Program-made: the position numbers and the translations under genes | Shown: piece by piece, positions 1-35,111 of the stretch | Position numbering within the stretch: the first letter of the stretch is position 1 | Layout: the number at the start of each line of letters is the position of its first letter | Notes under the pieces: model-generated | What the model was told of the DNA's origin: nothing | Databases searched by the model: none | The model's input: the letters and a program-made list of their open reading frames with translations, nothing else | Assembly (NCBI GenBank): GCA_010093995.1 | Contig: ML992511.1 | Coordinates: forward strand, 62,849-108,331 | Origin: Elsinoe ampelina | Lineage: Eukaryota | Reading direction: 5' to 3' | DNA: 45,483 bases

Positions 1-2104
1 ATTTTAACTACCCTTACTATAGTATAGTACGCTACGAGGTTAATAAGTAACTCTTGCTCTAAGTTACTATTAGCATCTTCGATCGCTAGTAAGCTAGGAA
101 AGCTTACTATTAACGACATGTCTACTACTAGTTTAACCTCGGGCGAATATAGAAGGTCTTTTAGTATAGAAGGATAGAGTAGGCCTAAGTTAGAGGTAGA
201 ACTCTTCTATAGGGACCGCGCTTACTTAAGGCGCTTTCTTGTTTAACTTAAAGCCTTCTTCGCCCTAGAGAGAGATAAGTATAGTAACAACGCGGCAAAG
301 GTCCTCTATACCGGGATATATCTTAAGAGCGCCGCCTTCGGGTAGTTTAAGCCTTATATAAGTAGCTACCTAGATAGACAACTAGGCCTAGAGATAAAGG
401 CTATCTTTAAGAGCTTTAGTATCTTCTAGGCAAAGATTAAGTAAGTCTTTAACGTATCTAACGAGAAACGCGTTGCTATGACAAAGATCTAACAATTATA
501 ACAACGTAGGTCTATAGCCTAGTACTATTCCTAGTTCTAACAACTCGTAATACACCTAGACTAGGACAATAGTACTAAACACTTAGCATTCTATTAAGGA
601 CTAAGCGACTTAGTTAAAGACTAAATAATACCTAAGCTACTCGATAGTCTTTAGGAACTAGTAGACACTACAATTGCTATCGATAATAGACTTTACGAAC
701 GACGTATAGAACGTTATAGGGGATATAAGGTAAACACTAGATATACGCGTTTCTCCCGAAACTATAGAGACCCTATAGAACTTAATACTATACACGAAGG
801 CTGCCCCTTATAGATACGAGGCTATAGTCGTAGAGGAAAGTTCCTTAGTAGAAAAGAGAGAGAGAAGTATAGATAAGATAATCTATGTTTTAAGTGTAAA
901 AGACCTAGGCATTAGGCTAGGGACTACTAATAAGGGGCGCTAGCCGATAGATTACATATAATAGTTACTAGGCTAGTAGAAAAAAAAGGTCGACACTACT
1001 ATAGAAGACCTAACGACCTTTAGCGTAGGTAAGGAAACATAGAAGAGGTCTATAACGACTTAAGAGGTAATAGAATTTTCTCCGGATGTTACGCTTAATA
1101 TCTCTATAACTAATAGCGAATAACAAAGCTAATACGTAACGCTATTATAGATAGTATATTACGATAACTCTTGTTATATTTACTTATTAGACAAGTAGAG
1201 ATCTAGTTAGTTCCTATATAAGCTATCTAAGCGTAGGTAACTAACAAAATAGCTAGACTAGGGGCTTAACCTAGAAAGGCTCTCTATAATTAGTAGTAAC
1301 ATTAACTAACCTTAGAAGGTAGTTAGCGACAATTACTAATATACAATTATCGAGACAAAGTATTAGAACGCAAGTGCTATATAATAATATAGTAGCCTTA
1401 CCTTTAGCCTTTATAGCGAACTACAAGGAAAGGTATATTATATATCGCTCTAGAAATATACAAATCTAGATTACGAATAGTACTATACTATCTACTTATA
1501 CGATATGCTTAGAGAAGACGCTATTAGTCTTAAATATACTATAGACTTCTTAGTAATCGAGATAGATAGTACTATTCCCTATAGCTAAGTAAAAGAATAT
1601 ACTTAGTATAGCCTTACTAACTATAACTATACTAGAGGTAGTAGCGATAAAGAGGAATATAACGAAGAATATACCGAACAACTACGATATAACAACATAG
1701 ATAAGGACTTATCTAACAACAACGACAATAACGTACTACTATCGGGCAGACGACTTAAAGTATACCTTATAGAGATATAGAGGAATTATATAATAATATA
1801 CACCTACTACTAGAATAGGATATAATAAGACAAATCTACATAACTTGTTTTTGTCTTTAATACTAACGCCTAGCTATACCTAGAAGGAATAGTTATACCT
1901 ATATAGGTATATAACACTACTTAGTACAACTAGTAGAGAATTATTAGACTTTATAGTTACTAAGGGACTTAGGCGCTAGAAGTTTACCTTACTATGTTAA
2001 ATAGCGATAAAACACAACTTGCCTAATAGATATAGTACTAATAGTAGATACGTATAGGAAGGGATTAGCTACTTATCTAAGGAGCTATAATGACAAAAAA
2101 CTAG
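1..2104 (+). pseudogene. gag: Gypsy-1 gag (long C-terminal extension), RIP-degraded
   Basis: De-RIP reading gives DPMELD-like motif (~770-790) and zinc knuckle LCFKCKRPGHxARDC (~883-927). AAAAAAC-TAG slippery/stop site at 2095-2104. Confidence 0.8.
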
Positions 2105-5100
2105 CTAGTTGTCGCCTAATAAGGTAAGACAATAACACTAGCTAAAGCCTTAATATAATAAAGATCTATATATTAAACTACTTTATACTAGAAGTCGAAA
2201 TATAAGGAAGTAAGGTAAGAGCAATAATAGATTTAGGAGCTAACTATAGCTATATCTCTATAATAGTTACTAATTAGCTTAAACCTTATTAACACTAGAA
2301 GGAGTTACCTTACCTACTTACTATAGCGGATAGAACCTCTATAGGGAAGAACGGGAAAGTTACTTAGGAACTACGAAATGTTATAATCTAAATTAAAACA
2401 CACACGGAAAAACAATCGATCGATATAGTTAACATATAGTATAATATAGTACTTAGTATAGACTAGCTTTAATAACACAATCTAGACGTAGACTAGATTA
2501 AAGAAACACTCGAATTCCCTAAGTATAATTATAGGACATAGGGAGTATAATTAGCTCTATAGATACTAACTATAAGGACAGTATAGGTATAACTAATAGT
2601 TAGAGCTATTACTAGTGTAAGTAATTAAGTACTTCCGCCGGAATATAAAGACTTTAAGGACTTATTTAAAGAAAGAGAAGGTATTATAGCCTTACTCTAA
2701 TATAAACTATAGAATTACAAAATACCTTTTAAAGAAGGTAAATCCCTAACACACTATTAAGGTCTTATACTACTATTAAAACAAGAGGAGAATGTCCTTA
2801 AGAACTATATCGATAAGTACTTACTTAAAGGATTTATACAACTATTAAAATTACCTATTATGTATAGAGTGCTTTTTACACTAAAAAAGGATAGAACGTT
2901 ATAAATATATATTAATTACTAGAAACTTAATACACTTACTAGGAAGAATTACTATTCTCTACTAAGAATTAACAAACTTTAAGACTAACTACTTAAAGCT
3001 AAATAGTTTACTATAATTAATATTAGAGACGCCTATTATTAAGTATAAATAAAGGAGAGTAAGGAGTAGAAGATAGCTTTTAGGACGTAATAGAGTCTAT
3101 ATAAGTACCTCGTTATACTCTTTAGGTTAACTAACACTCCCGTAACTTTCTAAGAGTTAATTAATAACACTCTATAAAAATACCTTAACGATTTTGTCTT
3201 AGTATATTTAAATAATATTATTATCTTCTTAAAGATATATAATAAACATATAGGACATGTTCGTAAAGTACTATAGAAACTAAAAAAAAAAGACCTACCG
3301 GTAAAACTCTCTAAGTGTAAGTTCTATAAACATAAGATATAATTTCTAGGCTATATTATATCTACTAATAGTATCAGACCCGATCTGAAGAAGATCAAGT
3401 TAGTAAATAACTAGCTAGAACCTATAATAGTTAAGGAGGTTTAAGCGCTACTAGAGTTCTTTAACTACTACTATAAGTTTATTAAAGAATTCTCTAAGGT
3501 AGCTATACTAATATCTAACCTTACGAAAAAGGAAACTAGCTTTGTCTTTAACAAGAGATATAGGTAGGCCTTTAAGGAGCTAAAGCTTAGACTTATAATA
3601 GCACCTATTCTAGCACTCTTCGACCTAGACCGATAAGCACTACTAGAAACAGATGCCTCGGACTTTGCGATAGAAGCGTATCTAGCGTAGAAGGGCGTAG
3701 AAGGATAATGCTACTTAATTATATACTACTTACGAAAAATGACCGGACCTAAACTTAACTATAATATATATAACAAGGAATTACTTATAATTATAAAAGC
3801 GTTCCGCGAATAGAGAGTATACCTAGAAGGAACAACCTTACCCGTATAAGTCTATACTAACTATAAGAACCTTCTATATTAGACAATAACTAAGGTTCTT
3901 AATAGACGACAGGTTCGATAGTTAGAAACACTTATAAGCTATAACTTCTAGATCTACTATGTTAAGGGATTAGAGAATAATAGAGTAGACGCTCTTAGCT
4001 GCTAGCTAGATTACTTAAAAAACATAACAATAATAGAGGCCTCTATACTAAAGTAGTAGGACGGCGCTCTAGTCTATAAGCACCCGAAGGTAGAGTAGTT
4101 ATATAGCCTTACCTAGGAGCTTACGTAAGAACGAAAGAAAGAAGTTATTTAAATATACTATAATAACCTAATAGCGGGACATAGTAGGATTAATAAGACT
4201 ATCGAACTTATTACATAAAACTACCTCTAGAAAGAACTCTAAAACAATATTAAAACGTATATCGCTACCTATAATACATGCTATAAGTCTAAGCACTCTC
4301 GATATAGACTATATAGCCTACTATAACTCTTGCCACTACTAGACAAACTATAGTAATTAGTTATAATAGACTTTATAGGACCTCTACTACTATTAGAAGA
4401 ACCTCTTACAGGTATAAAGTATAATAGCATTCTAGTCCTAGTAGATAGGTTTACGAAGTATTACTACTTTGTCCTATATAAGACAATAGTAACTACCGAG
4501 GATATAGCCTTTACCTTCCTTCGAATAATTGTTTTACGACATAGAGTACTATAAGACCTAATAACTAATAGAGATAAGCTATTTACGTTATAATTCTAGT
4601 AATTATTTATAGACCTACTAGGAGTTAAATATAAGCTATTAATCTTCTTTTACCTATAAACGGACGAATAAACTAAATAGGCAAATTAAGTACTAGAGTA
4701 GTACCTATAATACTACCTAAACTATAAGTAAGACTTATAAGCGATACTATTACTGCTCGTAGAGCTCGCTATCAATAATAGAAAGTTAGTAAATAGAATT
4801 TTACTATTCTACGTAAACTATAGAATACACCTAGATCTATACTACGATATACTTAGAATTAAGCTAGTATCTAAGGATGCTAATATACTAGTAGCTAATA
4901 TTAAGAAACTATATAACTAGCTATACTATAATATAGCATTTATATTATAAAGAATAGTAGAGTTTGCTAACCGGAAGAGAATTATAGGACTAATTCTATA
5001 GGAGAGAGAGAAAGTTTACCTCCTTAGTAAAAATATTAAAACAAAACAACCAAGTAAGAAACTTAACTATACTAAACTAGGACCCTTTAAGATCCTAGAA

Positions 5101-5475
5101 AAGAAAAACAAGAACGTATATAAACTAGAACTACTAAGATATATAAGGATTTATCTAGTCTTTTATATATTACTACTAGAGAAAGCACTATAGAATACTA
5201 TACCTAGACCTATCGAACTAGAGGAAGAAACACAGGAGCTACGGTATAAGATAGAAAGGGTTTTACGTTATAAACTTATAAAAGAAAAACGCTACTATCT
5301 TATTTACTAGAAGGGACATTAGTATAGTAAAGTAATATAGGAACTAGAGGAGCACCTTACCTCGTAAGTAATTCTAGATTACTAGATCGAGAACCTATCC
5401 TAAGTAAACTAACTAGACGGACTTAGTACTCTAAACACTAAACAAAAACGAGAATACCTAAGGAAGATTACTTAA
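2101..5475 (+). pseudogene. pol: Gypsy-1 pol (protease, RT, RNase H, integrase, chromodomain), RIP-degraded
   Basis: AMIDSGA-like (2221), KKDGTLRMCIDYRKLN-like (~2884), YLDD-like (~3205), TDASDFAI (3650), TDGQTER-like (~4660), GPF (5080), chromodomain YEIERV..YLIHWKG..TWEPEEHL (5245-5358). In-frame TAA at 5473-5475. Confidence 0.92.
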
Positions 5476-6020
5476 CTAATAGAAGCACCTTAATTGTTAC
5501 TAAGTAAGAAACTCTAATCGGAGTTAAGCATAAATAACTACTAGTCCTACGGTAGGACGGGATCTACTAATAATAGTATTTCCTTCTACTCTAAGACTTA
5601 AATACGAGTCTCTTCTAGAGAGATTACTTTCTCTACCTTATCCTTTAACTTTTACATCTCTTTACATAGGTAAAGCTTATTACCTATAGCTCTTTAATAA
5701 GCCTCTTTTGCCTTTTTATAAGCTTCTTTAGCTTCTCTTCTAGTAGCCTTAGCTATAACTAATTCCTTTCGTAAATAAATATGCTTAGACTAAAGACGCT
5801 ACTATTTTGATTTTATTACCTAAATATTATAACTCGAGTAGTTACTTACGATATACTAGCTATAGATACCCGACTAAATATAGACCTTATAGTCTAGCCC
5901 CTTCGATTTACAACGAGAATAAGCCTACGGTATGTTAGTTCTAAATAGTTTAATAAACTCCGAGAGATTCTTTCGTATAGATATACTAGATTTGCTATGC
6001 CTTCGACAACTAGGAGGCAT
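5472..6020 (-). pseudogene. Antisense accessory ORF of Gypsy-1, ~182 aa, Zn2Cys6-like cluster plus coiled coil (brtn-like)
   Basis: Intact ATG at 6020. Reading TAT/TAC as RIP-mutated TGT/TGC gives A-C-S-R-C-K-S-K-G-L-D-C-K-V-H-I-x-S-G-I-C-G-Q-C-I-A-S-N-x-S-S-C-D (C-x2-C-x6-C-x8-C-x2-C-x7-C), then an E/K/A/R-rich helix. All internal stops are TAG/TAA. Confidence 0.75.
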
Positions 6021-6094
6021 ATTTAGTATATAGCGCGTAAGAATAAGGAAGAATACTTACTTATTAGAATAACTTAATTAAAGGAGAAGAGTAA

Positions 6095-6557
6095 TGTTAC
6101 GAACTAGTAGGATAGCTAGAATATAGAGACGTTAGAACTAATTAAGCTACCGAGATTATCACGTGACCTAGCCTAACGTTTACCTAGTTCTCTATCTTCT
6201 CTAGCGGCTCTACCTCTAAAACTATAGAGCACATAGGTTACTAGCGAACGTGTACTCTATATTACTCCCGACTCTTGCTATAGAGCATATAGAGCACATA
6301 GAGAACATAATAGAGAACACATATATATAGGAATAGTCCTTACCTTATATAAGTACTATAGTTAACCTCGTCTAGATAGCGAACACTAGTATTACTAAGG
6401 CTAGCCTTTATAATACTATCTAATTGTACTTTATTATCTATAAGACATACCTTCTCTAACTCTTACCTTAGTACTATACTACTATAGAAGTAGAACTACC
6501 TTGTTCCTAGCTTAGCTTAGACTACTAGTGTAGGCTATGTTTAGACAGTTCGTAATA
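6095..6557 (+). repeat. 3' LTR of Gypsy-1 (463 bp)
   Basis: Starts TGTTACGAAC just after the PPT and ends GTTCGTAATA (inverted terminus, CA>TA). Internal TAGAGCACAT-like repeats at ~6222-6322. Confidence 0.88.
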
Positions 6558-7033
6558 TAAAGATCCCTAAGCTTCTTAATCCTAAGGTAAGTAAATCTCC
6601 TATACTAGAGCTAATACTCTATCTTAGAGTTATTAGGTCCTAAGTTAATAAGATTCTCTTATTGCTTATCCTAGGTTAGATATATATACTTAGTCTATAA
6701 TGTAATTATAGGCTAGATAGTAAGAAATACTAAATCTTAATTAGCTAGATCTAGAATTAAGCTAGGCTTAGATCTAAAATATAGCTTTTAATTAGCTAAT
6801 TACTTAAAGAGGAATTAGATAATATATACTCCCTCTCGAATTCTAGCTTTAAGTAATAGTTGCTTTTACTAATTAAGAACAAGAAAAGAATTTAAATTAA
6901 GAACTTTAGAAACCTCTAAATCTAAGTATAGCTTATAATAGAAGACTAAATTAATACTAAGATTAGGTATATAAAGAGCCTATATCTTTATCTTATCTCT
7001 CTTCTTAGTCTTAATAACTATAGTTCCTATTAA
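6558..7033 (-). mobile_element. Ty1/Copia element 'Copia-A', fragment 3 (protease C-terminus to GAG-pre-integrase)
   Basis: Minus strand de-RIP reading: IGTVVIK, ALYVPNLGINLV, LWHRRFAHLG..KLRDL. Confidence 0.85.
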
Positions 7034-7244
7034 TATAACAGAGTATCTAGATAGAGTAGGTACGATGTCTCTAAGATAGAGAAGTAATAGAGGAGAAGTA
7101 TACACTATATAAATACAACGACAAATTTCTAACCTCTCTATAGGAGGTTAGGAACTACTACTATATATACTATATAGGATTATAGCTAGAATAACGTATC
7201 TCTAATATCTATCTACTAGTCGTAAGTTTATAGTTCCTATTATA
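7034..7244 (-). repeat. Gypsy-2 3' LTR (211 bp)
   Basis: Colinear with 14745-14955; the differences seen are transitions. Confidence 0.95.
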
Positions 7245-7769
7245 ATTGCCTTCTTCTCTATAGGCCTATCCTTAGGCTAGTCCCTTGTTAAAACTCTCTA
7301 GTAGTAGGGAAAGAGTAGACTACCTTCGGAGCGTTGTTATGCTATATATAGAGGTCTATATACGAGGTCTTAGCATTAGGTAAGGAATGTAAAGTGTAGC
7401 TCTACTTAACTTTATATATAAATTTGCCTTACCTAGTATATATAACAACGTTATTCCCTTGTTTCCTAGCTACTATTATGCTAGCTATAACGATAATTAG
7501 TAGGCTACCTTATTTCTTCTTATATCCTTCTTCTCTTAATTAGTATAGGAGCCTTCTATTATCTATAATAATAAGACAATAGAACAATAGGACGCTCCGA
7601 TATATATACGAGGCTTTTCTCTTATTAGAATATCTCTTCTCTTTCTTCTAAAAACCCTTTTACTAAAGTATAGCTCCTTACTCTCTACCTTATATTCTAT
7701 ACTAATATCTCCTAGTATCTCTCTAACGTCTTATTATTCTTTCTCCGCTATTAGGAATCTTCTTTTAAT

Positions 7770-8455
7770 ATGTCTTCTCTAGTAAGTACTACCTCTAGTA
7801 GACCTAACTATAGCTAGATCTAGCGCGAAGGTACTTCGCTATTGTCTCCTAGTTATACTAACGTTGTTCTTATTATAGAGAGCTCTTACGTTAACTGTCT
7901 TAAGCTTACTACTAAATACGTAATGTCGGATAATACTAACTTTACTAATAACCTCCGCTACTATAAGAAGTAGAATAATTATGCCTTCTACTAGCTCTAT
8001 AAGCTCTGCTATAATAGCTATATCTTTATAGGTCTAACGACTATTCTCCGTCGAAGCGATACTAATACTCCTAGTTCCTTAAGTGCTATAGTAATAAACT
8101 TAAGGCTACTAGAGTTACTTACGAGGCTATCTACGCTCGTTGTTATACTAATAAGGATAAGGAGTTAGACGCTATACTAGCTAATAAGTAGCGTATTTAC
8201 GACGCCTATACTATAATAGTAAGATATATTACTACTCTTAAGGCTAAATATATTTCTACTAAGAAGAAGAGAAAGAGAGGAGAATCTAACTCCGATAATA
8301 ATTCGCCTATGACCTATAAGGACTTTGCCGCCTTACTTGCTAGTAGCTAAAAGACTAACGAGTTATTAGCAAAGATTATCGGCGCCTAGTCTACTAGGAA
8401 GGCTTCTGCCTATACTACTATATCGGCCTCTAGTAGTACTACTAGTAGAGCCTAA
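7770..8455 (+). pseudogene. Gypsy-2 antisense accessory gene A, ~212 aa, Cys cluster + KKKRKR + coiled coil, one intron (8028-8074)
   Basis: ATG at 7770, exon 1 of 86 codons. De-RIP pattern C-x2-C-x20-C-x9-C-x2-C-x6-C-I-F. 47-nt intron (G>A)TAGGT...ACTAAT...CTAG. Exon 2 reads ...KKKRKRGES...KDFAALLASSxKTNELLAKI... Confidence 0.72.
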
Positions 8456-8856
8456 GAGATTTAGGGAGTTAGAGTAGTTACTAGTATAGTATTCGGGTTT
8501 CTAGGTATAAGTATAAGTTCCTTAGTCAATGTAATAGCTTAGAGCTATCGGAGATAGATTTTGCCTTTTAGAGTTTATAGAGTTTTTTGCTTTCTACTTC
8601 TTCTTTTTGCCTAAGTCTTTTATTTTATAGCCCCTAGTAGAGCTATAGCTCTTAGATTACTCTTGCTCCTTTATTAGGGCCTATTATTCCCTTAGGTATT
8701 GTTATATTATTAAGAGTCTATTATTAAGGTAAGTATTATTAAGGAGAGTATTATTGTTTAGATAATAGAGAAGCGATATATATATACTATCTTCTCTCTC
8801 TTTCTCCTTAATCTCCTTAGACTCCTTATTCTCTCTATCTACTTAACTTCTACACT

Positions 8857-9551
8857 ATAATATTAGAATCTTATAGTATTATAACCTACTATGTCTCTAC
8901 CGATTAGATTAATAACTCTAGCTACGCTATGTCCTTCGAGTCTCTAGAGATTACTAACGTTGTTATAGAGGCGATATACTGTCTTAGATTCGGTAGAGAC
9001 TTCTCTAGTAACTATAACTATAACTATAGTAAGAGCTCTAAGCCTAAGTTTCTATAGTTCTAGACCTCTTCTAACTATGCTACGCTAGTGTACTACTATT
9101 AGTATAAGCCTTGTATTTGCTACTAGACTACTATATATCTTAACTATAAGTAGGCCTAGTCCTAACGTATTTATAACAACGATATAGGCACTTTCCTCCG
9201 CTACTATCTCTATTAACACTTCTATACTAAATATGTCTTCGTATGTTTTTGTTCTACGTTGTTACTATAATAGCTAACCTATAGTAGTATAACGTCTCTT
9301 ATACTCTACTTATTAAGAGTCTTATTTCGACCTAGCGCGCCTTTAATACTACTATCTATATTTAGGAGTCTAACGAAGATATAATAGAGTCCCTATATAG
9401 CAATCTTATTCTTAAGCTTATAGAGCTAGATAAGCCTAAAGACTTAGAGGATAGAGTTAAGATAGACCTCTTATAATTCGCTAGTGTTACGTTAGAGATA
9501 TATTATTAGACTAACGTTATACTTTTTTATAACATAGACTTACTTTTTTAA
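8857..9551 (+). pseudogene. Gypsy-2 antisense accessory gene B, Cys cluster, one intron (9241-9287)
   Basis: Frame 8857-9240 (in-frame ATG at 8929) ends de-RIP R-C-H-L-C-Q-H-F-H-T-E-C-V-F. Intact GTATGT donor at 9241, GCTAAC branch site at 9273, TAG acceptor at 9284 or 9287. Acidic helical exon 2. Both ends approximate. Confidence 0.62.
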
Positions 9552-9601
9552 ATCTTAATCTCGTGCTATTTCCTTATCTCTCTCTTTCTCTATAGCGTAA
9601 G

Positions 9602-12600
9602 TTTAAGCTCTTTAAGCCTTATAAGTCTCTTACTTAATGTAGCGTTACTTCGCTATTATGCTTAGAATAAGGCCCTTCTTCTCGAAGTTCTTAATTTTAC
9701 TAATAGTATTCCGTAGATGCTTTATTAGCTCCTAGCTAGCTTCCTCTTTAGAATAGCCTTTCTAGAGTATCTTATAGTAAGTCTTGCCCCTAATAAGACT
9801 CTTATTAACTACCTCTTTAACCTTATATTCTTCTTCCCCCTTAATTTCTACTAGCGGTAGAGTAATATTGTTACCTTATTAGTAAGCCTTAAGGAGAGAT
9901 ACGTAAAAGGTCGAGTAGATTAATTTTATATATACTAGAAGGTTAAGTTAGTATACTTAGTAGCCTACTATCTTAGCGACGGTAAATAGACCTATAAACT
10001 TCGCCGCTAGCTTCTTCTTTAGCTAGAGGGACTAAAGATTCTTAGTACTTAGTATAACTTCTTAGCCTTTCTTAAACCTTATTAGCTAGTGCTTCTTATT
10101 ATAGTATACCTCCTACTACGCGATAGCGTTAAGCCTATACTACTTAAGTTCTTCTCTTATGTCTTATAGGGCCTTTGCTCTTACTTCTACTACTAGTGCT
10201 TCTAGTAGTTATAGAGCTACCTCCTTCTTTATAGCGTTAGCCTTAATATTGTTAGAGAGACATAGGACTATTCCGTAAATATAGTAGAGTAGGCTTACCC
10301 CTAGTAACGCGCTATAGGAGCTATTATAGGCAAACTCGGCCTAATATAGCTAGTATAGCTAGTTATCTTAGTAGAAATTAATAAACACCCTTAGGTACTA
10401 TTCGATTATCTAGTTCTACCTCTCCGTAGCGCTATTAGTTTAAGAGTAAAACGCTATTAAGAGGCGTCTCTAGACCTTCTATCTCTAGTAGAGAAACGTC
10501 TAAAATTTAGACTTAAATAGGGTACCCCTATTAGTAATCTAGCTTCTTAGGAACCTATAGCGACTAAGAATCTTTCTCTCTATAATGTCGACTAACTCTT
10601 AGGCCTCTATGTCTTTTCTTACTAGAACGTATCTAACGTATTTAGATACTCTATCTACTAGCACTAAAATTGAATCGGTAACGGAGCTCTATTAGTCCTT
10701 TACTAGAGGTAAATCAGTAATAAAGTCTATTAACTAATACTAGAGTACTTCTCTAATAGAGAGTAATCTTAGAGCCTATATTTTACTATAGAGCTAATAT
10801 TAAGGAACCTTTGTTCTTTAGCACTTATTATAGTAATTTACGTATCTAGTAACGTCTATCGTTATACCCTTCTAATAGTACTTCTACTTTAGTATAAAGA
10901 GTGTCTTTTCTATTCCGAGGTAGCCTACTATTAGATTATTATAATTTCTATAGAGTATCTCTATAGTTAGTATTTTTATAGCTAGGATAAAGACTTTGTC
11001 TTAGAATAGTAGGACACTATTGTCTTACTATCTCTAGCTCTCTCTCTTAGTAGTCTCTCTTTCTTTAGAATCGCCGAGACGTTTTAGTATTGTCTCTACT
11101 ATAGTATCTCGCTACTATAGCCTCTTTACTAGGCTAAGTAGCCTCGGTAGTGCTTCTTTATATATATTGTCTTCTTTCGTAGCTATCGCGTATAGATATC
11201 TAGAGCTAGTAAGTTCTCTATAATTTCTCTATAATCTCTCTACTATAGTTATCTATAGGGAATAGCAAAAGGAACTACTTACCTCTAGGGGAGCGGACCT
11301 ACTATCTCTACTCTTATAGGGAGCTATCTTAGCTTCCGCGTCTATGTCTAGTATCTTACCTTAGGCTATAACACTCTCTTAGGTATCTTTAGATCTTCTA
11401 GTATACTCTACCTCGCTACGCTATCTCGGTAAGGAGTCCTCGGTAACTACTAAGTTTATATCTAGTATCTTACCTTATACATCTTAGGTTAACTTAACCT
11501 ATTTAGCTACTATTATAGCGTTAAGGAGAAGACGTCTCTCCGGCCTCTTATATAAGTCTCTTAGGACCTATAGGTGCGAGTCTACCTTAGCTTACTTATC
11601 TCTAGTATCTAGGTCTAGCCTTCTCGATAGTCTATCGGTAGAATTAAGCTTCCCCGGGTTATAGGTAATCTAAATATTATATTATAATAGCTCTTCGCTA
11701 ACGCGTGCCTATTAAGCTAAGAGCGTCTTAGTTATTAAGAAGTATTTTAGGTTATTATAATCTATAAATACAGTAGTAGTAGAAGAAATAGAGAGGAGAT
11801 ACTACCGCTAGTAGCGCGCTACCTTAAGGATAGTAAGTAGCTCTTAGTTATACGTAGGCTAGTTTAACTCTACTCTCTATAGTTTCTGCGAATAGTATAT
11901 AATAGAGTACTATTAGACTGCCTTCTCTCCGCCGTCGCCGAATAGTTATATAGTAATCCTAGAGATAGTAAATCTAGAGGAGTTAGTATATATCCTTATA
12001 TTCTTACTTTTATTAAAAAACTATAGGAGGGAAGTAGTTATAAAGCAGTCTTTAAGATATTAGAATAATTACCTAGCACTATTAGTAAAGTAGAAAGGAC
12101 CTATCTATTTTCTATTTTTGCTCTCTATAAGTAGTTATATTATAGGTCTTATTATTTCTATATAGCTATTAATAAACCGTTAGTAAAAGTTTATAAATCT
12201 AAGGAAGATCTAGAGTTCTTTTAGGGAAGTAGGTTCTAGCTAGTCTATAATAGCTTAAACTCTCTAGAGCTCTATCAAGACGCCCTCAGAGCCTAGAACA
12301 TATTCTAGAAACTATACTTCCTTAACTTTAAAGGCGTACTTAGAAGCCTTTATAAAAAGAAGATACTTCCTAAGTCGCGCTAGAACTTCTTTAACATGCC
12401 TACGGTGCTATAACAGATCTCGGGAGTAGATAAGAATATTATCTATATAGACGATATAGTAGTAATTAACTAAGCTATCGAGGCATTAGCTAATATATAA
12501 CTAGAAGGTAGTAGGAGCGTTTACGAGACTAAAAGGTATAACTACGTATTTAAAATATCTATATCTACATCGGAATACTATCTTCTATTCGTTGCTCCCC

Positions 12601-14744: not shown

Positions 14745-14955
14745 TGTAATAGAGTATCTAGATAGGGCAGGTATAATGTCTCTAAGATAGAGAAGCGATA
14801 GAGGAGAAGTATATACTATATAAATATAACGACAAATTCCTAACCTCTCTATAGGAGGTTAGGAACTACTACTATATATACTATGTAGGATCGTAGCTAG
14901 AATAACGTATCTCCGACGTCTGTCTACTAGTTGTAAGTTTATAGTTCCTGTTATA
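14745..14955 (-). repeat. Gypsy-2 5' LTR (211 bp)
   Basis: TGTAAT...GTTATA termini; matches 7034-7244. Confidence 0.95.
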
Positions 14956-15190
14956 ATTAACTATAACTAAAAGTAATACTCCCTAACCTAGATCTATTAA
15001 GTACAAATCTTGCTTAATAGGCCTCTAAAGAGAGTTAGCTTATCTATTATATAGTTAGATACTCTAGAGTTAAGTATCTACTAATAGTGTAGAAGCTTAC
15101 CTTAAACCTCTAATGTAGAACCTATAGTCTTAAGCTCTTTATTACTAGAAAGGACTTCTAGTAGTAGAGATAGAGATATTAATAGTAGAC
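14956..15190 (-). mobile_element. Copia-A fragment 2 (protease active site)
   Basis: Minus strand de-RIP WILDSGASNHMT (~15045-15081); continues across Gypsy-2 into IGTV in the 6558-7033 fragment. Confidence 0.88.
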
Positions 15191-15377
15191 TATTAAAGCC
15201 TTATATTAAAGCTATATATATTATAATATAGAGAACGCCTATCTAACTAAATAGTCTATTAGTAGTAGAACTAATTACTATTAAGTTTAAGGCGTAAGTA
15301 CTACGTAAGATAAGTAGATATATTACATAAGCGGGACTAGCCGCTACTAAGTGCCGCTCTAATACTAGGCTCTTATA
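15191..15377 (-). repeat. Gypsy-3 3' LTR (187 bp)
   Basis: Colinear with 21695-21881. Confidence 0.95.
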
Positions 15378-15791
15378 ATTGCCTCCTCCTCTAGGAGAGC
15401 TATCCTTAGCTTTTAACTAGAAGTATATAACGTATAGCGCCTTCTAGAGGTAATATAGACTTAAGGTAGTTAAGGCATTTATATAAATACCTCGTATGTG
15501 TCTTATATACTATTTAGTAATAGTAATCCTAGGGATCTAGTTCTTATAGGGGTATTTATCTAGTCGCTATAGCGCTAAAGCTAATTAGTAGCGACAATAT
15601 TACTTTTCTTAGAATTTCTAGTAGTATTATAGGAGATATACGCCTTACGCTAGTAGCTATAATAAAGATATAGTATACTAGAGGTTAGTCTATATAACTT
15701 TATTATTCCTTCTTACATTCTTCTTTTCTACCTAAAATATATCTATATTTTATTAATCTTTTACTATATAAGTGTACTACCTATAACTATT

Positions 15792-21655: not shown

Positions 21656-21694
21656 AGTCTAATAGATTATAACTATAGGTAGAGTAATTAGAAC

Positions 21695-21881
21695 TATTAA
21701 AGCCTTATATTAAAGCTATATATATTATAATATAAAGAACACCTATTTAACTAAATAGTCCGTTAGTAGTAGAACTAATTACTATTAAGTTTAAGACGTA
21801 AGTACTACGTAAGATAAGTAAGTATATTATATAAGCGAGACTAGCCGCTACTAAGTGCCGCCCTAATACTAGGCCCTTATA
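21695..21881 (-). repeat. Gypsy-3 5' LTR (187 bp)
   Basis: Matches 15191-15377. Confidence 0.95.
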
Positions 21882-23476
21882 TAGACCTCCTTTAGTAGCT
21901 AGATAGGCTTTGCCTTTCCTCTTTAGCTTAGCTACTTTAAGAGAGTCTATTCTCCTAGTAAGCTACCTTATAAGTCTAATTAGTTTCTAATATTTAAGTA
22001 ACTATTTCCTTATAGAGCTACTTCTTTTAGTAACTCTATAGGATAGCTAGATATACTTCTTAGCTTATTAGAGATAAGGACACCTAGAAATAGTATGTCT
22101 AGGTTCCTTATATAAGATATATATATAGCTTAAGCTCTTACTAGTTCCTTATTATAGTCTGCCTCTTATAAATATTACTATGTCTAGCTTCTTCCTTTAA
22201 TTCTCTTTCTCTCTTAGAATACTTAGGATAGTTTTAATATCTAGCCTAGGCTAGATATCGATACTATCTCTAATAGATTACTAAGATTCTAGAAAAGCAC
22301 TAAGAAGTTACTATAGCTTAGTAATAGAGAGTTCTATCTACCTAGCTTTAAGTATAATATAGATAATTATCCTTACTAGCTAAGTTAGATATGCCTAGGC
22401 TTCTATAATAAAGGTCTTCTCTAATATAGTATAGTTAGAGAACTCCTTTATAAGCTACCTACCTATAGATATAAGCCTCTTAGTATATTTAGCCTTAAGT
22501 ATATTCTATACCTACCTTGCTCTTATCTTACCTTAGATAAGAAGGTTATTCTTATAGTTAATATAAAGCTTAATCTAGTATAGATAAAGGGCATTAGCCT
22601 TTCTAGTCTATAGTAAATGCTAGGACTAAGCAATTAGTATAGAGGTAGTTAAGGAGGATAGTGTATTTAATAAAGAAGCTATTAATAATAATAGTAAATT
22701 AAGATTAGCTATGTTATTATTAAGGATATAGGTAACTTCTTTTGTCTTAAGCTATAATTTTATTATACTAAACTAGTGCTTATAGTTTTTATAGCTAAGT
22801 TCGGCTATAGGCTTTCTAATTGATAATATATCTATAGCGGAGAATAAAAATTAAATAAATAGATAAAGGTTAGAATCCGGAGGTTAATAACCTTTAAGTT
22901 AATTCTTCTAGGTATTAAGATCTCTATACTAGTCTTAACTAGATAATTGTTAATAAGATTAATAGGTGCTTAATCTTAAGAGAGAAAATAGTAATAAAAC
23001 AAATGTTATTTAGTTGTTTATAGCTAATAAATAGCAGCTATTATACAATTACAGAAATGAATCTATAGTAGACATCTTAATACGTCCTACTTAATGCACT
23101 AAGTAACTAGTCTTTTACGCTTTATACTACCTCTACTAATCTGTCTAAGATTAAGATAATAGAAGAGAAATAGAGGAGAATACTAATAGAATCCGGCCTA
23201 ATTTTAATAACGTAGATACTTAACTACGGTATATATAATCCTATACTTGTGCTATAGCTCCGGGCTTATAACCTATTAAGTAGAAGGCACGTTTAGGAGT
23301 GGAATATTATATAGAACCAATTGTACACTAGTTAGGTAATAGACGAGTTAATTAATTAAAAGGAGTCTATCTACTAGAAGAAAGAATAGCTATAAATCCC
23401 TAGGCCTTAGCATTACATAACTTAAGGTTATATAACTTTATAGCCTAATTATCTAGAGAGAGCTATATTCTTAACA
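21882..23476 (-). mobile_element. Copia-A fragment 1: 5' LTR (23274-23476), PBS, leader and gag
   Basis: LTR TGTTAAG...CTTAATA on the minus strand, followed by GGTTATAAGCCC (fungal Copia PBS GGTTATGAGCCC after RIP). gag from ~22835 (ENYEHWF..MKLWL). Zinc knuckle CILCKEPGHTISRC at ~22080-22122. Confidence 0.88.
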
Positions 23477-23560
23477 GTTATTAGTACTAAAAATAACTAA
23501 TGCTAAAAGAAGGTTAGAAAACGTATTATTAGCTAATAAGAGTAGATATTAATTCTAGAG
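23477..23560 (+). mobile_element. Fot1/pogo transposon P1 (type A), internal fragment 1
   Basis: Aligns to the DDE-region sequence at 31472-31555 and to the reverse complement of 43085-43168. Confidence 0.85.
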
Positions 23561-23984
23561 TAATATTATATATCTACGAGTTATATATATCTACGAGTTA
23601 TATATATCTCTATATATCTAATATATAACTTTTATAACTATTCTACCTTCCTATATAATAAATATTATAATTCGAGCTATTCTATTATATATTCTAAAGC
23701 TAATATTAAGGCTACTCTCTAAGGCTATTAGAATAATACTTATATCTCTCTTTAAGCTACTACTAATACATTTTAAATTCTACTATCTATACTTCGAGAT
23801 AGATATTATAGCTAATAATTATATACTATATATAACCTACTAAAGTAATTACTATCTCTAGCTAAAGAATAGACACTTATAGTTTATATTCTTTAGCTCG
23901 ATAGCCTTAGTACCTCTATAATACTCTTCTTCGTCTATAAGCTTATTTATAAGATAATTTAACATCGGTTATAAGTAACTAATA

Positions 23985-24718
23985 ATGTAATTTACCTACG
24001 AGTAGTTCGTCTCTATAAGTAGTTTATAAAATTACTTTTTTTTTTACCTTTTTAGTAATATCTCTATAAAGCCTTAATATCTTAGCCTAATATTATTTAT
24101 AATGCTAGATACTCTATAGATCTATATATACTACTAATTTTATTATTATAGAAGCTTAATTACTACTAGTAATTAGATATTTAGTTTTCTAGATTCTAAT
24201 AATTTAAATTAGCTATATATTAGCTTTAAGAGGTTTATTATAAGAAATTTAAGAAATATTAAATAGCTACTATTATAATTTATATAGTGTTATATTATTC
24301 TAATCTTAAACTTATTTCTAATAAGAGATAAGCTTATTTTTAAAATAATTTTTTAAAAAATAGAAGTTTTTTAGTTTTTAAGCTAATTCTTAAACTAATC
24401 TACTAAAAGAGCTTAATACTACTACTATCTCTATTATATTAAACTATATAAAGTATATAATTTAAATTACTTCTTCTTTTTAAGTATTTATTAAGAAAAT
24501 TAGTTATAAATTTTAGAAATATTAAAACTTATATATTATTAGTACTACTAAGTATTTTAAAGTGTCTTTAATATGACTTATAGTTCTAATATCTTACTAG
24601 TTCTATACTAAATTTAAAGCTATATTAGTTATAGTTTATAGAGATATTACTAAAAAGGTAGAAAAAAGTAATTTTATAAACTATTTATAGAGATAAACTA
24701 CTTATAGGTAAATTATAT
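23985..24718. mobile_element. MITE copy 1 (734 bp, ~85-bp TIRs, TA TSD)
   Basis: ATGTAATTTACCTACGAG...CTTATAGGTAAATTATAT inverted ends; no recognisable coding content; three copies in the window. Confidence 0.9.
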
Positions 24719-24980
24719 TAATACATTAAAGAATAGCGTAATAGCCTTATAGGTTCTAGCTTTAAACTATAGCAATTCTAGCTACTATAACTAATATAGT
24801 TTAATCTCTAAATAACGTTTATAGAATTAATATATCTATGTCCTACTAATAGGATATATACGAGACAAGAGAAGTTTATTAATGTAATTTACCTACAAGT
24901 AGTTTATCTCTATAAGTAGTTTACAAAATTACTTTTTTTTACCTTTTTAGTAATATCTCTATAAACTATAACTAATATAG

Positions 24981-27900
24981 TGTTAACCTATTAACTCTAT
25001 CTAATTATACTAAGACTAGTCTTAGACCCTAAGTACTATAGTTAGACATTAACTATATAATAACTATATAATAGATTATCTTTAACTATAGTTTATATAG
25101 AACTACTAAAGATCTTTATTTACCTCTATATTATTTTAAGTTAATTCTGTTATATATAGCTATAGATATAAGCTCTTAATTCTAAGGCTAAGATAATAAG
25201 TATAGTCTATCTAACACTTTCTATAGTTATAAGCCTAGTATTACTACTACTATAGAAAGACTAGTTACTTATTTCTTTAAGAACTTCTTTCTTATTATAT
25301 CCTCTATTAGCTCTTTAATTACTATACTATTGTCTTTATTCCCTAATAGACTATCTATAAGAGTAACTTATTATTACACTGTTTATTATAGACCTTTATT
25401 ATAGCAATTATGTTAGAATATATAAGCTATACTATCCTATTAGAGAAGCTAGTAGACTAGATAGTATAGATCTACTTAGTTAGAGTTAGAGTATAGGTAC
25501 TTAACATCTAGAACATTATTAATCTATCTTAACTAGTAGTACTATAACTACTATAAGCTCCTTAAAGAGAAGAAGATAAAGACATTAAAGAGTATAAAGA
25601 CAGAAGGATTAACTACCTATTAAAGAAGAAGGGACTTATAGAGATTATTAAATACATCTATAACAATCTTAGCTATATAGCTCTTTAAGTACTAGTAGTA
25701 GAACTAAGTAGTTATCTATATAATTAACTTAAAGCACTTAAGAAGTAGTTTTAATAGAAGACTATAGTACTTAGTTATATATATAAGTAATAGTTTAACA
25801 TTCTTACTAAAGGCCTATTATTACATTAGGACATATTAGTCTAGGCTAATACATAGATTAATCTTATTAGTTAGTGTAACTAATATTAATTTATATAGTT
25901 AAAAGGAATAGAACTATATTAAGTATTCCTTATTAGAGTATAAGACATTAGCTATATAGGTTACTAGGCAAGTATAAGGATTAACTATATCCTTAAGAAT
26001 AAAGAACTAAAAGACTTTATTAATATAGTTAAAGACTTTAAACTAGTATATATAGCATAAAATCTAGCTAAGATTACTAAAGGAGACATTTATATATTAG
26101 CCTTTATAACTAGATTAATAGACAAGTCTAAAGGCAAGAAGGAATTCCTAAAATGCCTTTATAAAGGACATTACTACTATAGCTAATACTTCTATATTAA
26201 TCTAGAGAAGCGCCCTCCTAGACTTACTATTAATAATAAGGAGCTACTTAATATTTAATAGAGAATTAACTCTAACTCTAAGCTTAAATTAACAATTAAG
26301 TAATTACTTAGGAAATATAAGGAAACTAAGCACTATAAAGGTTAATAAGCTTTAGAAAAGCTAGTAGTATTATTTGCTATAACTACTGCTATTTAATTAC
26401 CTAATAAGACAAGTAAGGAATTATTATAGTCTTTTATTATAGCTAAAGATAGTACTTAGTCCTCTTTATTATTTTTATTAGTTATACTAAGGCAAGCTAT
26501 ACCAATTTATAACTTATAGATCCTCGACTCTAGATTAATAGACTATATTACTAATAGTAGTATACTTTATAAATAGAAAAAGACTAGGGATATAAGCCCT
26601 AGAGATACACTATTTACTAGAAATGTCGCCTTACTAATTACTAGCTATAGCTAGATTACTATTAATAGACTTTATAACAAGTAGAGATATCTAATTATTC
26701 TTATAAATGTTATTATAATACTATCTTTTATAACTAACATTATTAGCCTCTATAAACTTATAGAGAAGTATATCTACTAGGACACTTAATTAATAACTCT
26801 TTATAGAGATATTAATTATTAACTAAGGGAATATATCTGTTCTATCTTTAAGAAGGCTAGACATTACCTTATCGAGGATAATATTAGTACTTTAACTTAG
26901 TATATAAGCTTATTTATAACATTAGTAGCCTCTATAATAAGGACACTAATATTATAGTATAATATTATAGCTTATCTATTAATAGAGGTTATTAAGTACC
27001 TTCTAATAAGTATATCTAGCTATAAGATAGCTAAACTACTTCTACCTTATATATTATTACTTAAAGATAAGTTACTATATAGCACTTATTTATAAACTTA
27101 AGTATATTAGCTAGTATTAAGAAAGCCTATATAAAAGGCTCTATCTACTAGGCTATTCTAAAGGCTTATATTTAATCTTATTATTACAAATAAGTAGTTA
27201 TATAATTAGCATAGAGTAATTAGTTATATCTCTTATAAATATACTAACTTTAACTTTATTAACATATACCCTAGTAAAGATATAGTAACTCTTAGTCTTA
27301 TTAAGAGAATTATATACATTATTAAGCATTATAATATAAGAATCTAATATCTTAGATATAATAATAAGATATTAATTATAAGAGTATAATATTACTAGCT
27401 CTTTATCTATAGTATTAAGGTTAAATAGTTAGCTACGTTAATCCCTAAGTAGAATAGCTATATAGAACAGGTAGGAGATGTTTTTACTATTAAGGCAAGA
27501 GCATTATAGATTTAGTTAGGTCTACTAAGTTATCTATAGCCTAAACTATATAAAATAGCTAGATACCTTATAAATAGAATACTAGTTAGAAAGCTTAACT
27601 AGAGTATACTATTATAAGTAGTTATAGGTTAACTACTAAATGTTTATTACCTACGACTAATTAGATATAAGGTATACTATCTTATTAAGACTAGAATTAA
27701 GTAAGGAGATAAGCTTATATCTCGTATAAATAAAGGTTACTTAGTTAGCTATAATTTAACTAACATCTTTAGAGTCTAGATTAACTACCTAAAAGGAGTA
27801 GTTAGGATTAGAGATGTAAGGTTTAATAAAATAGTCTTCTATAACTCTATAGATCTCTATATTCTACTATAGTACCTTTCTATTCTAACTATTAATATCT

Positions 27901-30226
27901 TTTAAGTAGAAGAAGATTAAGATTCTATCTATAATAGTACATATATAAACTTCCTAGAGGAACTTATAGAAGTAGTAAACATTACTAATAAACTACTAAT
28001 ATTAGTAGTATAGGACTTATTAAAGGAATTAATATTAAGGGGTAGACTTATAACTCTAGATCTATTATTAAAGGGTAAATTACTATTAGGATTTACTACA
28101 CTATCTAAGGACGTAGAAATCTAGGGTAACGACCTAGATGCTTTAGACTTATTATAGTTTAATATTATAGTTAATATATTAGAAGATAGAATAGAACTAT
28201 TATCTAAAATTATATTAGAAATCCTTCTAAGTAATATTATTATAATAAGGAGAACTAGAAAGAAGCGCTTAGCCTTCTCTATACTCCTTTATTAGACAGA
28301 AACTTAGCTAGATCTATAGGCTAGATACTATATAGCATTTAATATACATTTTACTACTAAATAAACTTAATAGTATAATCTTAAGGTTAATCTTTTCCCT
28401 ACACCTATAAACTATAAAGGGGTTTAAGGACATCTATATAAAGCTAGATTTATTAAGGCTATAGTTAAAGAGCTATAAAAGCTTAATAATAAGAATATAT
28501 AGGAGATTATTCTAATTAAGTAAGTTATAACTAACATAATACCTATAATATAGATATATATATATAAGACAAATAGTTAAGGTAAAGTCCTTACTAATAA
28601 ATTAAGACTCTATATTAGGGAAGATCTTTAATATACATAAAGTAAGACCTTTATAGTAACACTAGTATTAAAGGTTTTTAGGGTAATTCTTGTTATAATT
28701 ATATAGAAGGATCTTAACACTATTTAAATAGATACTATTAATACTTATATTAACTATAATATTAACGAGGAAGTCTATTATCTAATCCCTCTAGGATTTT
28801 ATTATTTTAAGTTAGACATTAATCTAGCTAAATATATACTTAAGCTAATTAAGGTACTCTATAGACTAAAATAGGTATCTCTTCTATAGTATAAGTACCT
28901 TACTATAACTCTCTTATCCCTTAGAATAATAGTTATTCTAGAAGTACTATACCTTTTCTATAAGGATAGAATCTAGCTCTTCTTCTTTATAGATAATATT
29001 ACTATTGCCTATCCGTAGGCACTTAAATAACAAGTAGAGGTACTATATACTTAACTCTATAAAGTATATAAGATAAAGAATCTTAGTGAACTTAACTAGT
29101 TCCTTTTAATTAACATTATAAGGGATAGATAAGGTAAGTACCTATATCTTAGCTAAGCTTAATATATTAAGAGCATCTATTAAAAGTTTATTAGGGATTA
29201 ACTACATAGACATTTTATAACTCCCTTACTAGATTACTATACATTTATTAAGTATAAGAGTTAAGTATTACTATAAGAGGTTTTTCTATTCTAGGAGAAA
29301 GTTAGTAGCCTTAACTTTGCTACTATTACTACTAGACTAGATATCTCTTTTATATGCTCTAGACTCTCTAAATATCTTAATAATCTATTACCTAAGCATT
29401 AAGAACTAGCTAATAGAGTTCTTATCTATCTATTTAATACTTAGGATGTTAAATTAATGTTTAACAATAACAACTTAGAATTATTACTTATTAGATGTTT
29501 AGATATGTTCTTTGCTAGTACTAAGAATTGTAAGAGTCTATAAGGATTTACTATTTACTTTAATAGTAACTATATTAACTAGAGAGCTAGTAAGTAATCT
29601 ATAGTTATAATATTATTAATAGAGGTAGAGCTCCTTACTCTAGCTAAAACTACTAAGTAAGCTATCTAGTAGTTAAGACTACTAAAATTACTAGAATTAA
29701 TTATAACTATAATTATTCTTTATAATAATACATAAACTATTTACCTTATTAAGTCTCTAATTAAGAAACTAGTTACTAAGCTACGCTATATTAATATTTA
29801 TAATTACTAGCTATAATAGAAGATCTCTAATAATAGATTTATTTTACTTTAACATATTAACACTAATAAGTATATAGCTAATAGACTTACTAAGTTACTT
29901 CTATCTCTAAAGCATAACAACTTTATAAAATAAGTCTTACTATACTAGTAACTATAGTATACTATAGTTACTAAAGAGGTATATTAACCTATTAACTCTA
30001 TCTAATTATACTAAGACTAGTCTTAGACCCTAAGTACTATAGTTAGACATTAACTATATAATAACTATATAATAGATTATCTTTAACTATAGTTTATATA
30101 GAACTACTAAAGATCTTTATTTACCTCTATATTATTTTAAGTTAATTCTGTTATATATAGCTATAGATATAAGCCCTTAATTCTAAGGCTAAGACAATAA
30201 GTATAGTCTATCTAACACTTTCTATA
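24981..30226 (+). mobile_element. Complete Ty1/Copia element 'Copia-B' (5246 bp), RIP-inactivated
   Basis: 245-bp LTRs (24981-25225, 29982-30226), TSD TATAG, PBS-like GTTATAAGCC at 25226, purine tract before the 3' LTR. Confidence 0.96.
25410..29950 (+). pseudogene. Copia-B gag-pol polyprotein
   Basis: ATG at 25410. De-RIP motifs WILDSG (26517), QNGxAE (~27450), KSRLCVRGDLQ (~28600), KALYGLK (28850), FVDDI (~28985), TEAEL (~29620), ADGLTK (~29877). Integrase precedes RT. Confidence 0.92.
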
Positions 30227-30793
30227 TATAGCTTTAAATTTAGTATAGGACTAGTAAGATATTAGAACTATAAGTTATATTAAAGACACTTTAAAATACT
30301 TAGTAGTACTAATAATATATAAGTTTTAATATTTCTAAAATTTATAACTAATTTTCTTAATAAATACTTAAAAAGAAGAAGTAATTTAAATTATATACTT
30401 TATATAGTTTAATATAATAGAGATAGTAGTAGTATTAAGCTCTTTTAGTAGATTAGTTTAAGAATTAGCTTAAAAACTAATATAACACTATATAAATTAT
30501 AATAGTAGCTATTTAATATTTCTTAAATTTGCTATAATAAACCTCTTAAAGCTAATATATAGCTAATTTAAATTATTAGAATCTAGAAAACTAAATATCT
30601 AATTACTAGTAGTAATTAAGCTTCTATAATAATAAAATTAGTAGTATATATAGATCTATAGAGTATCTAGCATTATAAATAATATTAGGCTAAGATATTA
30701 AGGCTTTATAGAGATATTACTAAAAAGGTAAAAAAAAAAAAAAATTTTATAAACTACTTATAGAGATAAACTACTCGTAGGTAAATTATATTA

Positions 30794-34277: not shown

Positions 34278-34689
34278 TAAGTAATATATTATAAAAATGA
34301 TATTATAATTCGAATCGTCGATAGCGGCTTTAGCGCTATTATAACGAGAAGTTAAATAATAGTAATAGCTTCTTAAGATATATAAGTATAAGAAAAGTAA
34401 TAAGTATATTACTATTAAAGGCTAGTTCGTCTTTAGCGAGTAAGAGACTATCGATATTCTTTATAAGGCTAAAGAAGAGACAAAGAATAAGAAGTGTAAA
34501 AAGCATAAGAAATTACTTACGCTAGAGAATTTACTAGAGCCTAAGAAAGAGAAGAAGCTAGAGCCTATTAGTTATAATTCTAGAGATAAGCTAGCTTAGA
34601 TTAATAGAGTTATTAACTATTCTTATTTAAAAGTACTATTTTACATATACGACTTATAGACGTATATAACTTATAGACGCGTAATATTA

Positions 34690-35109: not shown

Positions 35110-35111
35110 TA

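Follow-up and report, generated by a model that had tools for sequence, protein, structure and literature searches.

The window analysed here is a 45,483-nt stretch of Elsinoe ampelina contig ML992511.1 (assembly GCA_010093995.1, positions 62,849 to 108,331), and its left arm holds Gypsy-2, a Ty3/Gypsy chromovirus inactivated by repeat-induced point mutation (RIP). Between the end of pol and the 3' long terminal repeat (LTR) of this element lies an accessory region that, in the reading we consider rather probable, held two tandem genes antisense to gag-pol: gene A, a degraded member of a family of small six-cysteine proteins, and gene B, a partial or strongly diverged duplicate of A. An antisense accessory gene in an LTR retrotransposon is a known kind of feature; what is new is a tandem, probably intron-bearing pair from a widespread zinc-cluster-like family. 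Both genes are dead in the window and all copies seen are mutated, so that no present function is implied.

With a GC of 0.29-0.38, the leftmost 23 kb of this DNA is AT-rich; it holds no open frame longer than 102 codons, and three Ty3/Gypsy elements become readable in it once stops are read as X. The LTRs of Gypsy-2 form a direct repeat of 91% identity with a spacing of 7711 nt (Table 1), and the polypurine tract, AGAGAAGAAGG in minus-strand letters, stands immediately inside the 3' LTR. Its position makes minus the sense strand of the element and places the accessory region inside it. Gag-pol reads in one minus-strand frame, whose 1782 codons include 159 stops; the remaining two frames have 203 and 200. 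A query with Gypsy-2 pol returned 195 proteins at E 1e-10 or better, the best of them 33-44% identical, and Pfam records reverse transcriptase, RNase H, integrase and chromo domains in these relatives. The accessory region is the 2.3 kb separating pol from the polypurine tract and 3' LTR, and the two units do lie within the element and antisense to gag-pol, as the initial annotation of this DNA had held.

The damage is of the RIP type: when the copies in DNA run X1 are compared, 398 of the 418 places that differ are, by kind, transitions. At a likeness of at least 80%, 1065 short contigs of that run fill all 30 bins of 7000-10500, with a summed depth of 1532-5965 in the accessory bins and 4118-6524 in the pol bins and two to three times more in the LTR bins; these contigs come from one study, possibly including the window's own sample, and show a repeat family rather than independent confirmation. 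They support the conclusion that the accessory region belongs to the multi-copy Gypsy-2 family and is not a one-off transduction.

Each annotated frame and segment of A and B was found in the sequence where it had been placed, together with a CT-rich leader ahead of each unit, the KKKRKR run in A and the acidic tail of B (Table 1). Gene A would comprise 163 codons with an A-S-S-stop end if both of its intron-like segments were removed. In-frame stops number four in 86 codons for A exon 1, four in 127 for A exon 2, eight in 105 for B exon 1 and three in 63 for B exon 2, a density below that of the Gypsy-2 pol frame. The coding capacity is ancestral, not present; the frames are broken by RIP-type stops. 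Tyr, Cys and His together make up 23% of both first exons (for A, the 49 codons of 7881-8027), against 10-13% in the mutated gag and pol frames and 7-16% in other frames.

Coding signal was scored with a codon model that learned from the RIP-mutated gag and pol of the window itself. Tested on held-out elements in six frames, it ranked the true frame first in 33 of 48, 32 of 42 and 27 of 41 held-out 50-codon windows of pol and in 7 of 14 of gag. Wrong frames had a 99th percentile of 4.7-5.7, a value taken from 50-codon windows while the accessory region was scored with 40-codon windows. On the plus strand, with frames named by codon start mod 3, A exon 1 scored 6.3 (mod 0, at 7900), A exon 2 4.7-6.4 (mod 2, at 8080-8260, dropping beyond 8320) and B exon 2 8.2 and 5.6 (mod 0, at 9340-9400). 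B exon 1, at 1.3 or less, has no coding signal in this model. The best scores of the region thus coincide with the annotated frames for three of the four proposed exons, and the switch of frame within A coincides with its proposed intron.

It could be argued that there are no genes here at all, and that a mutated non-coding spacer with an internal tandem duplication yields the frames by chance. Stops do occur in all frames, the A and B exons lack a database homologue, B exon 1 is silent in the codon model, and a few frames on the minus strand, lying opposite runs rich in CT or T, reach 5-7 as well (7600-7660, 8320-8380 and 8500-8560). Such a spacer would nevertheless have to place three of four exons above the wrong-frame 99th percentile, switch frame at the proposed intron, and confine the A/B indels around the N-terminal motif to multiples of three, in a position and orientation where related and neighbouring elements have a real gene. 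We consider this quite unlikely.

Genes A and B resemble one another in part. With all registers compared, their best ungapped windows are identical at 33 of 45 and 39 of 60 positions, and none of 300 dinucleotide shuffles reached either value. The offset of 1213 puts both intron-like 5' edges in register with both reading frames kept, and 29 of the 39 bases upstream of these edges are identical (null 11.0 +/- 3.1). The bodies of the intron-like segments are not significantly alike (17/47 identical, p 0.16). At the protein level similarity is seen between the first exons (z 3.6, p 0.0045) and not between the second ones (p 0.44); sequence downstream of A compared with that downstream of B, the pol tail, stays within shuffles (28/45 and 35/60). 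The 13-mer TACTAACGTTGTT has one copy in each gene and no other in the window, and two in-frame 6-nt gaps follow it in the alignment of A with B. MAFFT global alignment and a transition-tolerant global alignment give conflicting registers outside the junction segment, and a 30-nt in-frame gap near the exon end is an alternative alignment.

Since the homologous segment carries both interruptions at the same site, the simplest explanation is that the unit was duplicated before RIP acted. These comparisons give good support to a duplication that took in no less than the first exon with its interruption, and they make B a partial paralogue of A, sharing the end of the first exon and the interruption site and differing in the second half. 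The old duplication and common interruption site proposed in the initial annotation therefore hold for the first exon and its junction and do not extend to the second halves.

Two further observations concern the A and B units. The string CTCCGCTACTAT (L-R-Y-Y) occurs at 7953-7964 and 9196-9207, an offset of 1243 that lies 30 nt from the main register and corresponds to ten extra codons in A, or a ten-codon deletion in B, between direct TACTA repeats. One short X1 DNA contig joins 7704 to 8998, skipping 1293 nt or about one A-to-B unit; it may represent a one-unit copy produced by A/B recombination, a weak observation with 22 letters on the shorter side.

The identity of the accessory gene comes from relatives. 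In 78 loci of unmutated Gypsy-2 pol relatives on metagenome contigs (626,399 nt), read in six frames, a motif with Zn2Cys6 spacing matched ten times in nine loci, and all ten matches lie on the strand antisense to pol. The open reading frames (ORFs) that bear it encode 166-207 aa and abut or overlap the pol end. They share the spacing C-x2-C-x6-C-x5-12-C-x2-C-x6-8-C and a layout of basic N-terminus (often MSS or MP), six Cys, a long Lys/Glu/Ala-rich stretch and an acidic tail, with C-terminal ends such as GSS or GNS before the stop. In a 50-sequence alignment spanning several diverged subfamilies, the invariant columns are the six Cys and one Leu. Database members at E 0.001 or better number 115 with a single query and 258 with a profile; no Pfam domain is recorded among the 120 matches listed of these 258. 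Named members among the matches listed come from Sporormia, Macroventuria, Ascochyta, Bipolaris, Exserohilum and Pyrenophora, the three checked being Pleosporales, and there are no Botrytis or Sclerotinia proteins among them. An antisense Cys-cluster gene is thus present in non-mutated relatives at the 3' end of pol. No published description of a six-Cys antisense Gypsy family was found in the literature searched, nor anything relevant on antisense Zn2Cys6 genes in gypsy retrotransposons.

The relatives carry one intron-less antisense gene rather than a pair (10 ORFs). In one relative locus (L016, minus strand) the antisense gene is present twice, at 173-727 and 6626-7171; the two versions have diverged, lie about 6.4 kb from one another and presumably belong to two element copies that are adjacent or wrapped. 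Wrapping of contigs round the element also confounded a survey of the distance from pol end to LTR across these loci, and no count was drawn from it.

Membership of the window's own genes in this family was assessed with a RIP-aware test, in which codons were scored against the family profile with C-to-T and G-to-A decay allowed; the nulls came from shuffling codons and from 400 decoys cut out of the mutated 23 kb, and in-silico mutation of six diverged family members supplied positive controls. The test has power, since 11 of the 12 mutated controls outscored every one of the 400 decoys with the narrower profile. A first set of local scans was rejected as composition-driven, responding to GC-richer patches and to the putative DDE transposase at 39-45 kb. 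The clearest result was gene C, an antisense gene at the pol end of the neighbouring element Gypsy-1: it scored 95.4 and 136.4 (z 5.6 and 9.4), was reached by 0/400 decoys and reads in a single frame throughout, from an MPPS... start through a Y-SR-C-KSKGLD-Y stretch and a Lys/Glu-rich helix to a GASIS-stop end. The profile scores firmly identify gene C as a mutated member of the six-Cys/coiled-coil family, and two different Gypsy families in the window therefore carry such a gene.

Gene A in spliced form scored 58.4 (shuffles 37.1 +/- 9.9, p 0.03, 1/400 decoys) and, with a wider profile, 69.9 (p 0.017, 4/400 decoys), against 23.1 and 34.2 for its unspliced frames (53.2 and 45.5 with the wider profile). 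In exon 2 the profile alignment pairs K-A-T-R-x-x-Y-E-A with D-K-T-R-E-E-Y, which agrees with our reading. From this we judge that A is probably a family member.

Several results weigh against placing A and B in this family, or against its zinc-cluster character. Support for A in the RIP-aware test is marginal, in a local version the p values were 0.13 (A exon 1) and 0.02 (A exon 2), and the profile alignment sets the Tyr and Cys of A exon 1 in a register unlike the annotated one, so that A's cluster cannot be placed. B scores below its own shuffles, and 176/400 and 309/400 decoys reach it. Ordinary searches were silent: Pfam at E up to 10 gave no family, Zn_clus included, for any of the four exons, A exon 2 had no match in 1.84 billion sequence representatives, tblastn of A and B against the 78 loci gave nothing below E 0.59, hmmsearch with the family hidden Markov model (HMM) gave nothing in the window below E 1.8, hhalign probabilities were only 0.06-0.2%, and no DNA likeness between the window and the 78 loci was found. 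A six-site pattern that accepts Cys or Tyr fits A only with a 23-residue middle loop, is not found in full in B, and occurs at chance level, with four strict and three long-loop matches in 23.4 kb. The annotated cysteine two codons before each interruption is a tyrosine in the window (Y-I-F and Y-V-F), and the supposed Cys residues cannot be told from chance. Of the 418 variant places in run X1, the 40 listed include none at a candidate Cys codon or at 8028. The annotated Cys-cluster accessory gene is thus real in relatives, which have an antisense six-Cys gene, while clusters in A and B themselves cannot be shown. As for position, A lies 1.2 kb from the pol end, unlike the family's usual place, and B adjoins pol with an end that differs from the family's GSS/GNS. 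Finally, four relatives tested miss the Pfam zinc-cluster model (Zn_clus) at E up to 1.

Despite this last result, the family is probably zinc-cluster-like. Its best sequence matches in the PDB, all weak, are Leu3, Ppr1, Gal4, Pho7 and Lac9 (E 0.17-0.6), and three Bipolaris members carry a Zn(2)-C6 fungal-type name in UniRef. The AlphaFold model of one relative has a mean predicted local distance difference test score (pLDDT) of 80.5 and a helix at 62-117, and in a Foldseek comparison 15 of the 20 rows listed were DNA-binding domains of the Zn2Cys6 class, with none reaching E 0.001. For two copies of its residues 1-125 a pairing through the helix is predicted, with an interface score (ipSAE) of 0.51 against 0.01 for the best of three controls, although this pass may stem from likeness to solved zinc-cluster dimers. 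Among proteins solved as same-chain pairs 21 of 30 reach the mark, and among those solved as single chains 0 of 23 do. At least 80% of contacts agree between the runs, with partner pLDDT of at least 80. The predicted contacts (72 with 96-100, 83 with 83-87) describe an antiparallel pairing, whereas the Gal4 coiled coil is parallel. The relatives' proteins share with the domains of Gal4, Ppr1, Put3, Hap1, Leu3 and Pho7 the Zn2Cys6 spacing followed by a long self-pairing helix. They differ from Zn(2)-C6 factors in missing the Pfam model, in being encoded by a retrotransposon, and in their size of only about 170 residues, without a regulatory or activation domain. The family may bind zinc and DNA.

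The initial annotation had also proposed that A and B acted together as two components of one module, for instance as a heterodimer or as activator and inhibitor. A is basic with its KKKRKR run, the B tail is acidic, and the predicted self-pairing of a relative's helix makes pairing between paralogues conceivable. But the second halves, where the pairing helix of relatives lies, are unrelated between A and B, B has no family signal and carries a 6-nt gap that upsets its first Cys pair, and a single gene suffices in relatives. We regard a module of this kind as a guess, and as quite improbable.

The A/B pair is probably intron-bearing, judging from splice-like motifs and their placement. A strict motif (GTRHGT, with CTAAC 4-28 nt before YAG, 40-90 nt in all) occurs eight times on both strands of the 23.4 kb, six of them on the plus strand, and two of those six fall in the accessory region, at 9241-9287 in B and 7782-7823 in A. 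In B the GTATGT at 9241 and the GCTAAC are intact, as annotated, with a TAG. The segment at 7782-7823 contains two of gene A's stops, and taking it out left the family-profile score unchanged. The second segment of A, 8028-8074, starts with AT rather than GT in the window copy and becomes canonical only with RIP-type changes undone; at the corresponding edge of B, 9240-9241, most other X1 copies have TA where the window copy has CG. Joining A across 8028-8074 raises its family-profile score from 23.1 and 34.2 to 58.4. A further candidate intron in the middle of A (7920-7973, GTAATG...TACTAAC...TAG) was rejected, since the only hhalign alignment, an insignificant one, pairs its YVMSDN with the family's YIMPNS.

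The 47-nt segments might not be introns: a frameshifting insertion or decayed stretch may have broken the gene before its duplication, in which case A and B were pseudogenes before RIP acted. One reason to think so, and a point against our own reading, is that the ten relatives' ORFs and gene C run uninterrupted through the site, which means that the intron is either specific to the Gypsy-2 lineage or no intron; the AT start of the A segment and the lack of significant likeness between the segment bodies point the same way. However, B combines GTATGT, GCTAAC and TAG at fungal-intron spacing, a combination with only eight occurrences in the 23.4 kb, and A's ATAGGT and TACTAAT depart from canonical only by changes of the RIP kind, the same CG-to-TA change being seen at B's edge in other copies. 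Both segments are also 47 nt long and in phase 0, and the accessory depth about equals that of pol, so that the family kept transposing with the segment in place. We consider a pre-RIP breakage unlikely, though deserving of some weight, and retain the reading of A and B as a probably intron-bearing pair.

To our knowledge, none of the extra antisense LTR-retrotransposon genes of plants and Botrytis has an assigned biochemical activity. The original description of one of them, brtn of Boty, is reportedly that of Zhao et al. 2011 (Virology 417:248). As described in the parts of the later literature consulted, brtn is a fungal antisense gene between pol and the 3' LTR (PMC7264820, PMC8365987, PMC4227169, PMC5987419). 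Boty and Gypsy-2 are alike in being fungal Ty3/Gypsy chromoviruses with an extra gene in that place, antisense to gag-pol; Gypsy-2 differs in having two tandem units with intron-like interruptions, a comparison that rests on the description of brtn. In plants, antisense ORFs between pol and the 3' LTR are reported for maize Grande (gene23), rice RIRE2, Silene Retand and Phaseolus PvRetro13; Grande has its own antisense promoter, nuclear localisation is reported for some of the products, and they are said to have no database similarity and no known role (PMC7264820). These agree with A and B in place and orientation and differ in belonging to non-chromovirus lineages with unrelated sequences, and the sections consulted do not mention a zinc-cluster-like motif (PMC7264820).

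An origin outside the element can also be envisaged, with a fragment of a host zinc-cluster gene captured, or a mobile element nested, in an ancestor of the family. In typical relatives far less sequence follows pol, A stands away from the pol end, and the spacer has no likeness to relatives, all of which would suit a foreign region. Yet repeat comparisons revealed no terminal repeats of a nested element, and the occurrence of the same kind of antisense gene in several diverged subfamilies argues for an old resident gene. We regard a foreign origin as very improbable, and favour a resident antisense gene that was partly duplicated.

Table 1. Features of the accessory region and its surroundings, in window positions
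Feature	Position	Strand	Remarks
CT-rich leader of gene A	~7590..7769	+	read directly; putative antisense promoter/5' untranslated region
Gene A start, first four codons	7770..7781	+	M-S-S-L; MSS start also in family members
Gene A first intron-like segment	7782..7823	+	42 nt, GTAAGT...CCTAAC...TAG, in frame; strict motif; candidate
Gene A Tyr/Cys-rich exon	7824..8027	+	frame mod 0; codon model 6.3 at 7900
13-mer TACTAACGTTGTT	7856..7868 (A); 8952-8964 (B)	+	same frame, T-N-V-V
Gene A segment homologous to B 9198-9258	7985..8045	+	offset 1213; spans exon/intron edge
Gene A second intron-like segment	8028..8074	+	47 nt, ATAGGT...TACTAAT...CCTAG; frame mod 0 to mod 2
Gene A second exon	8075..8350	+	frame mod 2; KKKRKR at 8261-8278; ends A-S-S-stop, TAA 8348-8350
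CT-rich leader of gene B	~8780..8890	+	read directly
Gene B first exon	8929..9240	+	ATG 8929; frame mod 1; Tyr/Cys-rich; weak coding signal
Gene B intron-like segment	9241..9287	+	44 or 47 nt, GTATGT...GCTAAC...TAG; strict motif
Gene B second exon	9288..9476	+	frame mod 0; acidic tail; stop 9474-9476; codon model 8.2, 5.6
Gypsy-2 pol 3' end (chromodomain and tail)	9560..9900	-	minus-strand translation; tail ends near 9560
Gypsy-2 polypurine tract AGAGAAGAAGG	7249..7259	-	minus-strand letters; immediately inside 3' LTR; read directly
Gypsy-2 3' LTR	7036..7247	-	212-nt direct repeat; ends read directly
Gypsy-2 5' LTR	14747-14958	-	partner of the 7036-7247 repeat
Gypsy-1	up to ~5600	+	translation with X at stops
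Gene C, Gypsy-1 antisense gene	5472..6020	-	overlaps that element's pol end; RIP-aware profile
Gypsy-3 LTRs	15189-15387 and 21693-21891	-	repeat pair; strand is that of the element

Elsewhere in the window, Gypsy-3 measures 6.7 kb and has gag and pol in separate frames, without a long stretch after pol. The window copy of Gypsy-2 keeps CG at 7598-7599, 8424-8425, 9240-9241 and 10121-10122, where most other X1 copies have TA; these are paired changes on both CpG strands, alongside the usual CpA-type changes. A second repeat family has several copies in both orientations at 23500-38000 and 38000-45483. Its copies at 39-45 kb have a GC of 0.46-0.50 and those at 24-38 kb a GC of 0.19-0.27, so that mutated and nearly unmutated states of one family are adjacent in the window. 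At 39-45 kb it translates to a transposase-like protein (..LVLDGHSSHV..FPPYASH..), putatively of the DDE/pogo-Fot type.

We propose a model for the intact element in which each gene would be transcribed from its own CT-rich antisense promoter and its short introns removed only from the antisense RNA. From how retrotransposition works, such introns would survive it because the genomic RNA carries them in an unspliceable orientation. The protein might then enter the nucleus, aided in A by KKKRKR, dimerise through its helix and bind DNA through the zinc cluster, most plausibly in the element's own LTR or cDNA, and this binding could tune transcription or integration of the element. It is tempting to go further and speculate that Pleosporales-type chromoviruses encode, antisense at the 3' end of pol, a miniature Gal4-like factor, dimerising through antiparallel helices, that controls their own LTR promoter or steers integration, and that the Gypsy-2 lineage gained antisense-only introns and then duplicated the gene into a nuclear, basic DNA-binding A and an acidic partner B; this fuller scenario is a long shot.

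As the window copies are dead, they say nothing on present fungal biology, and the meaning of the finding lies with the element family. What the window adds is a tandem duplication and intron-like interruptions in an antisense retrotransposon gene; antisense introns, if that is what they are, would be the equivalent in nature of the antisense intron that retrotransposition reporters exploit. Gene C further illustrates that RIP-aware profile scoring recovers gene identity where ordinary searches are blind. The relatives give the antisense accessory gene a recognisable architecture, a zinc-cluster-like head followed by a predicted self-pairing helix, and with at least 258 intact proteins in the databases its role becomes testable by zinc, DNA-binding and dimerisation assays.

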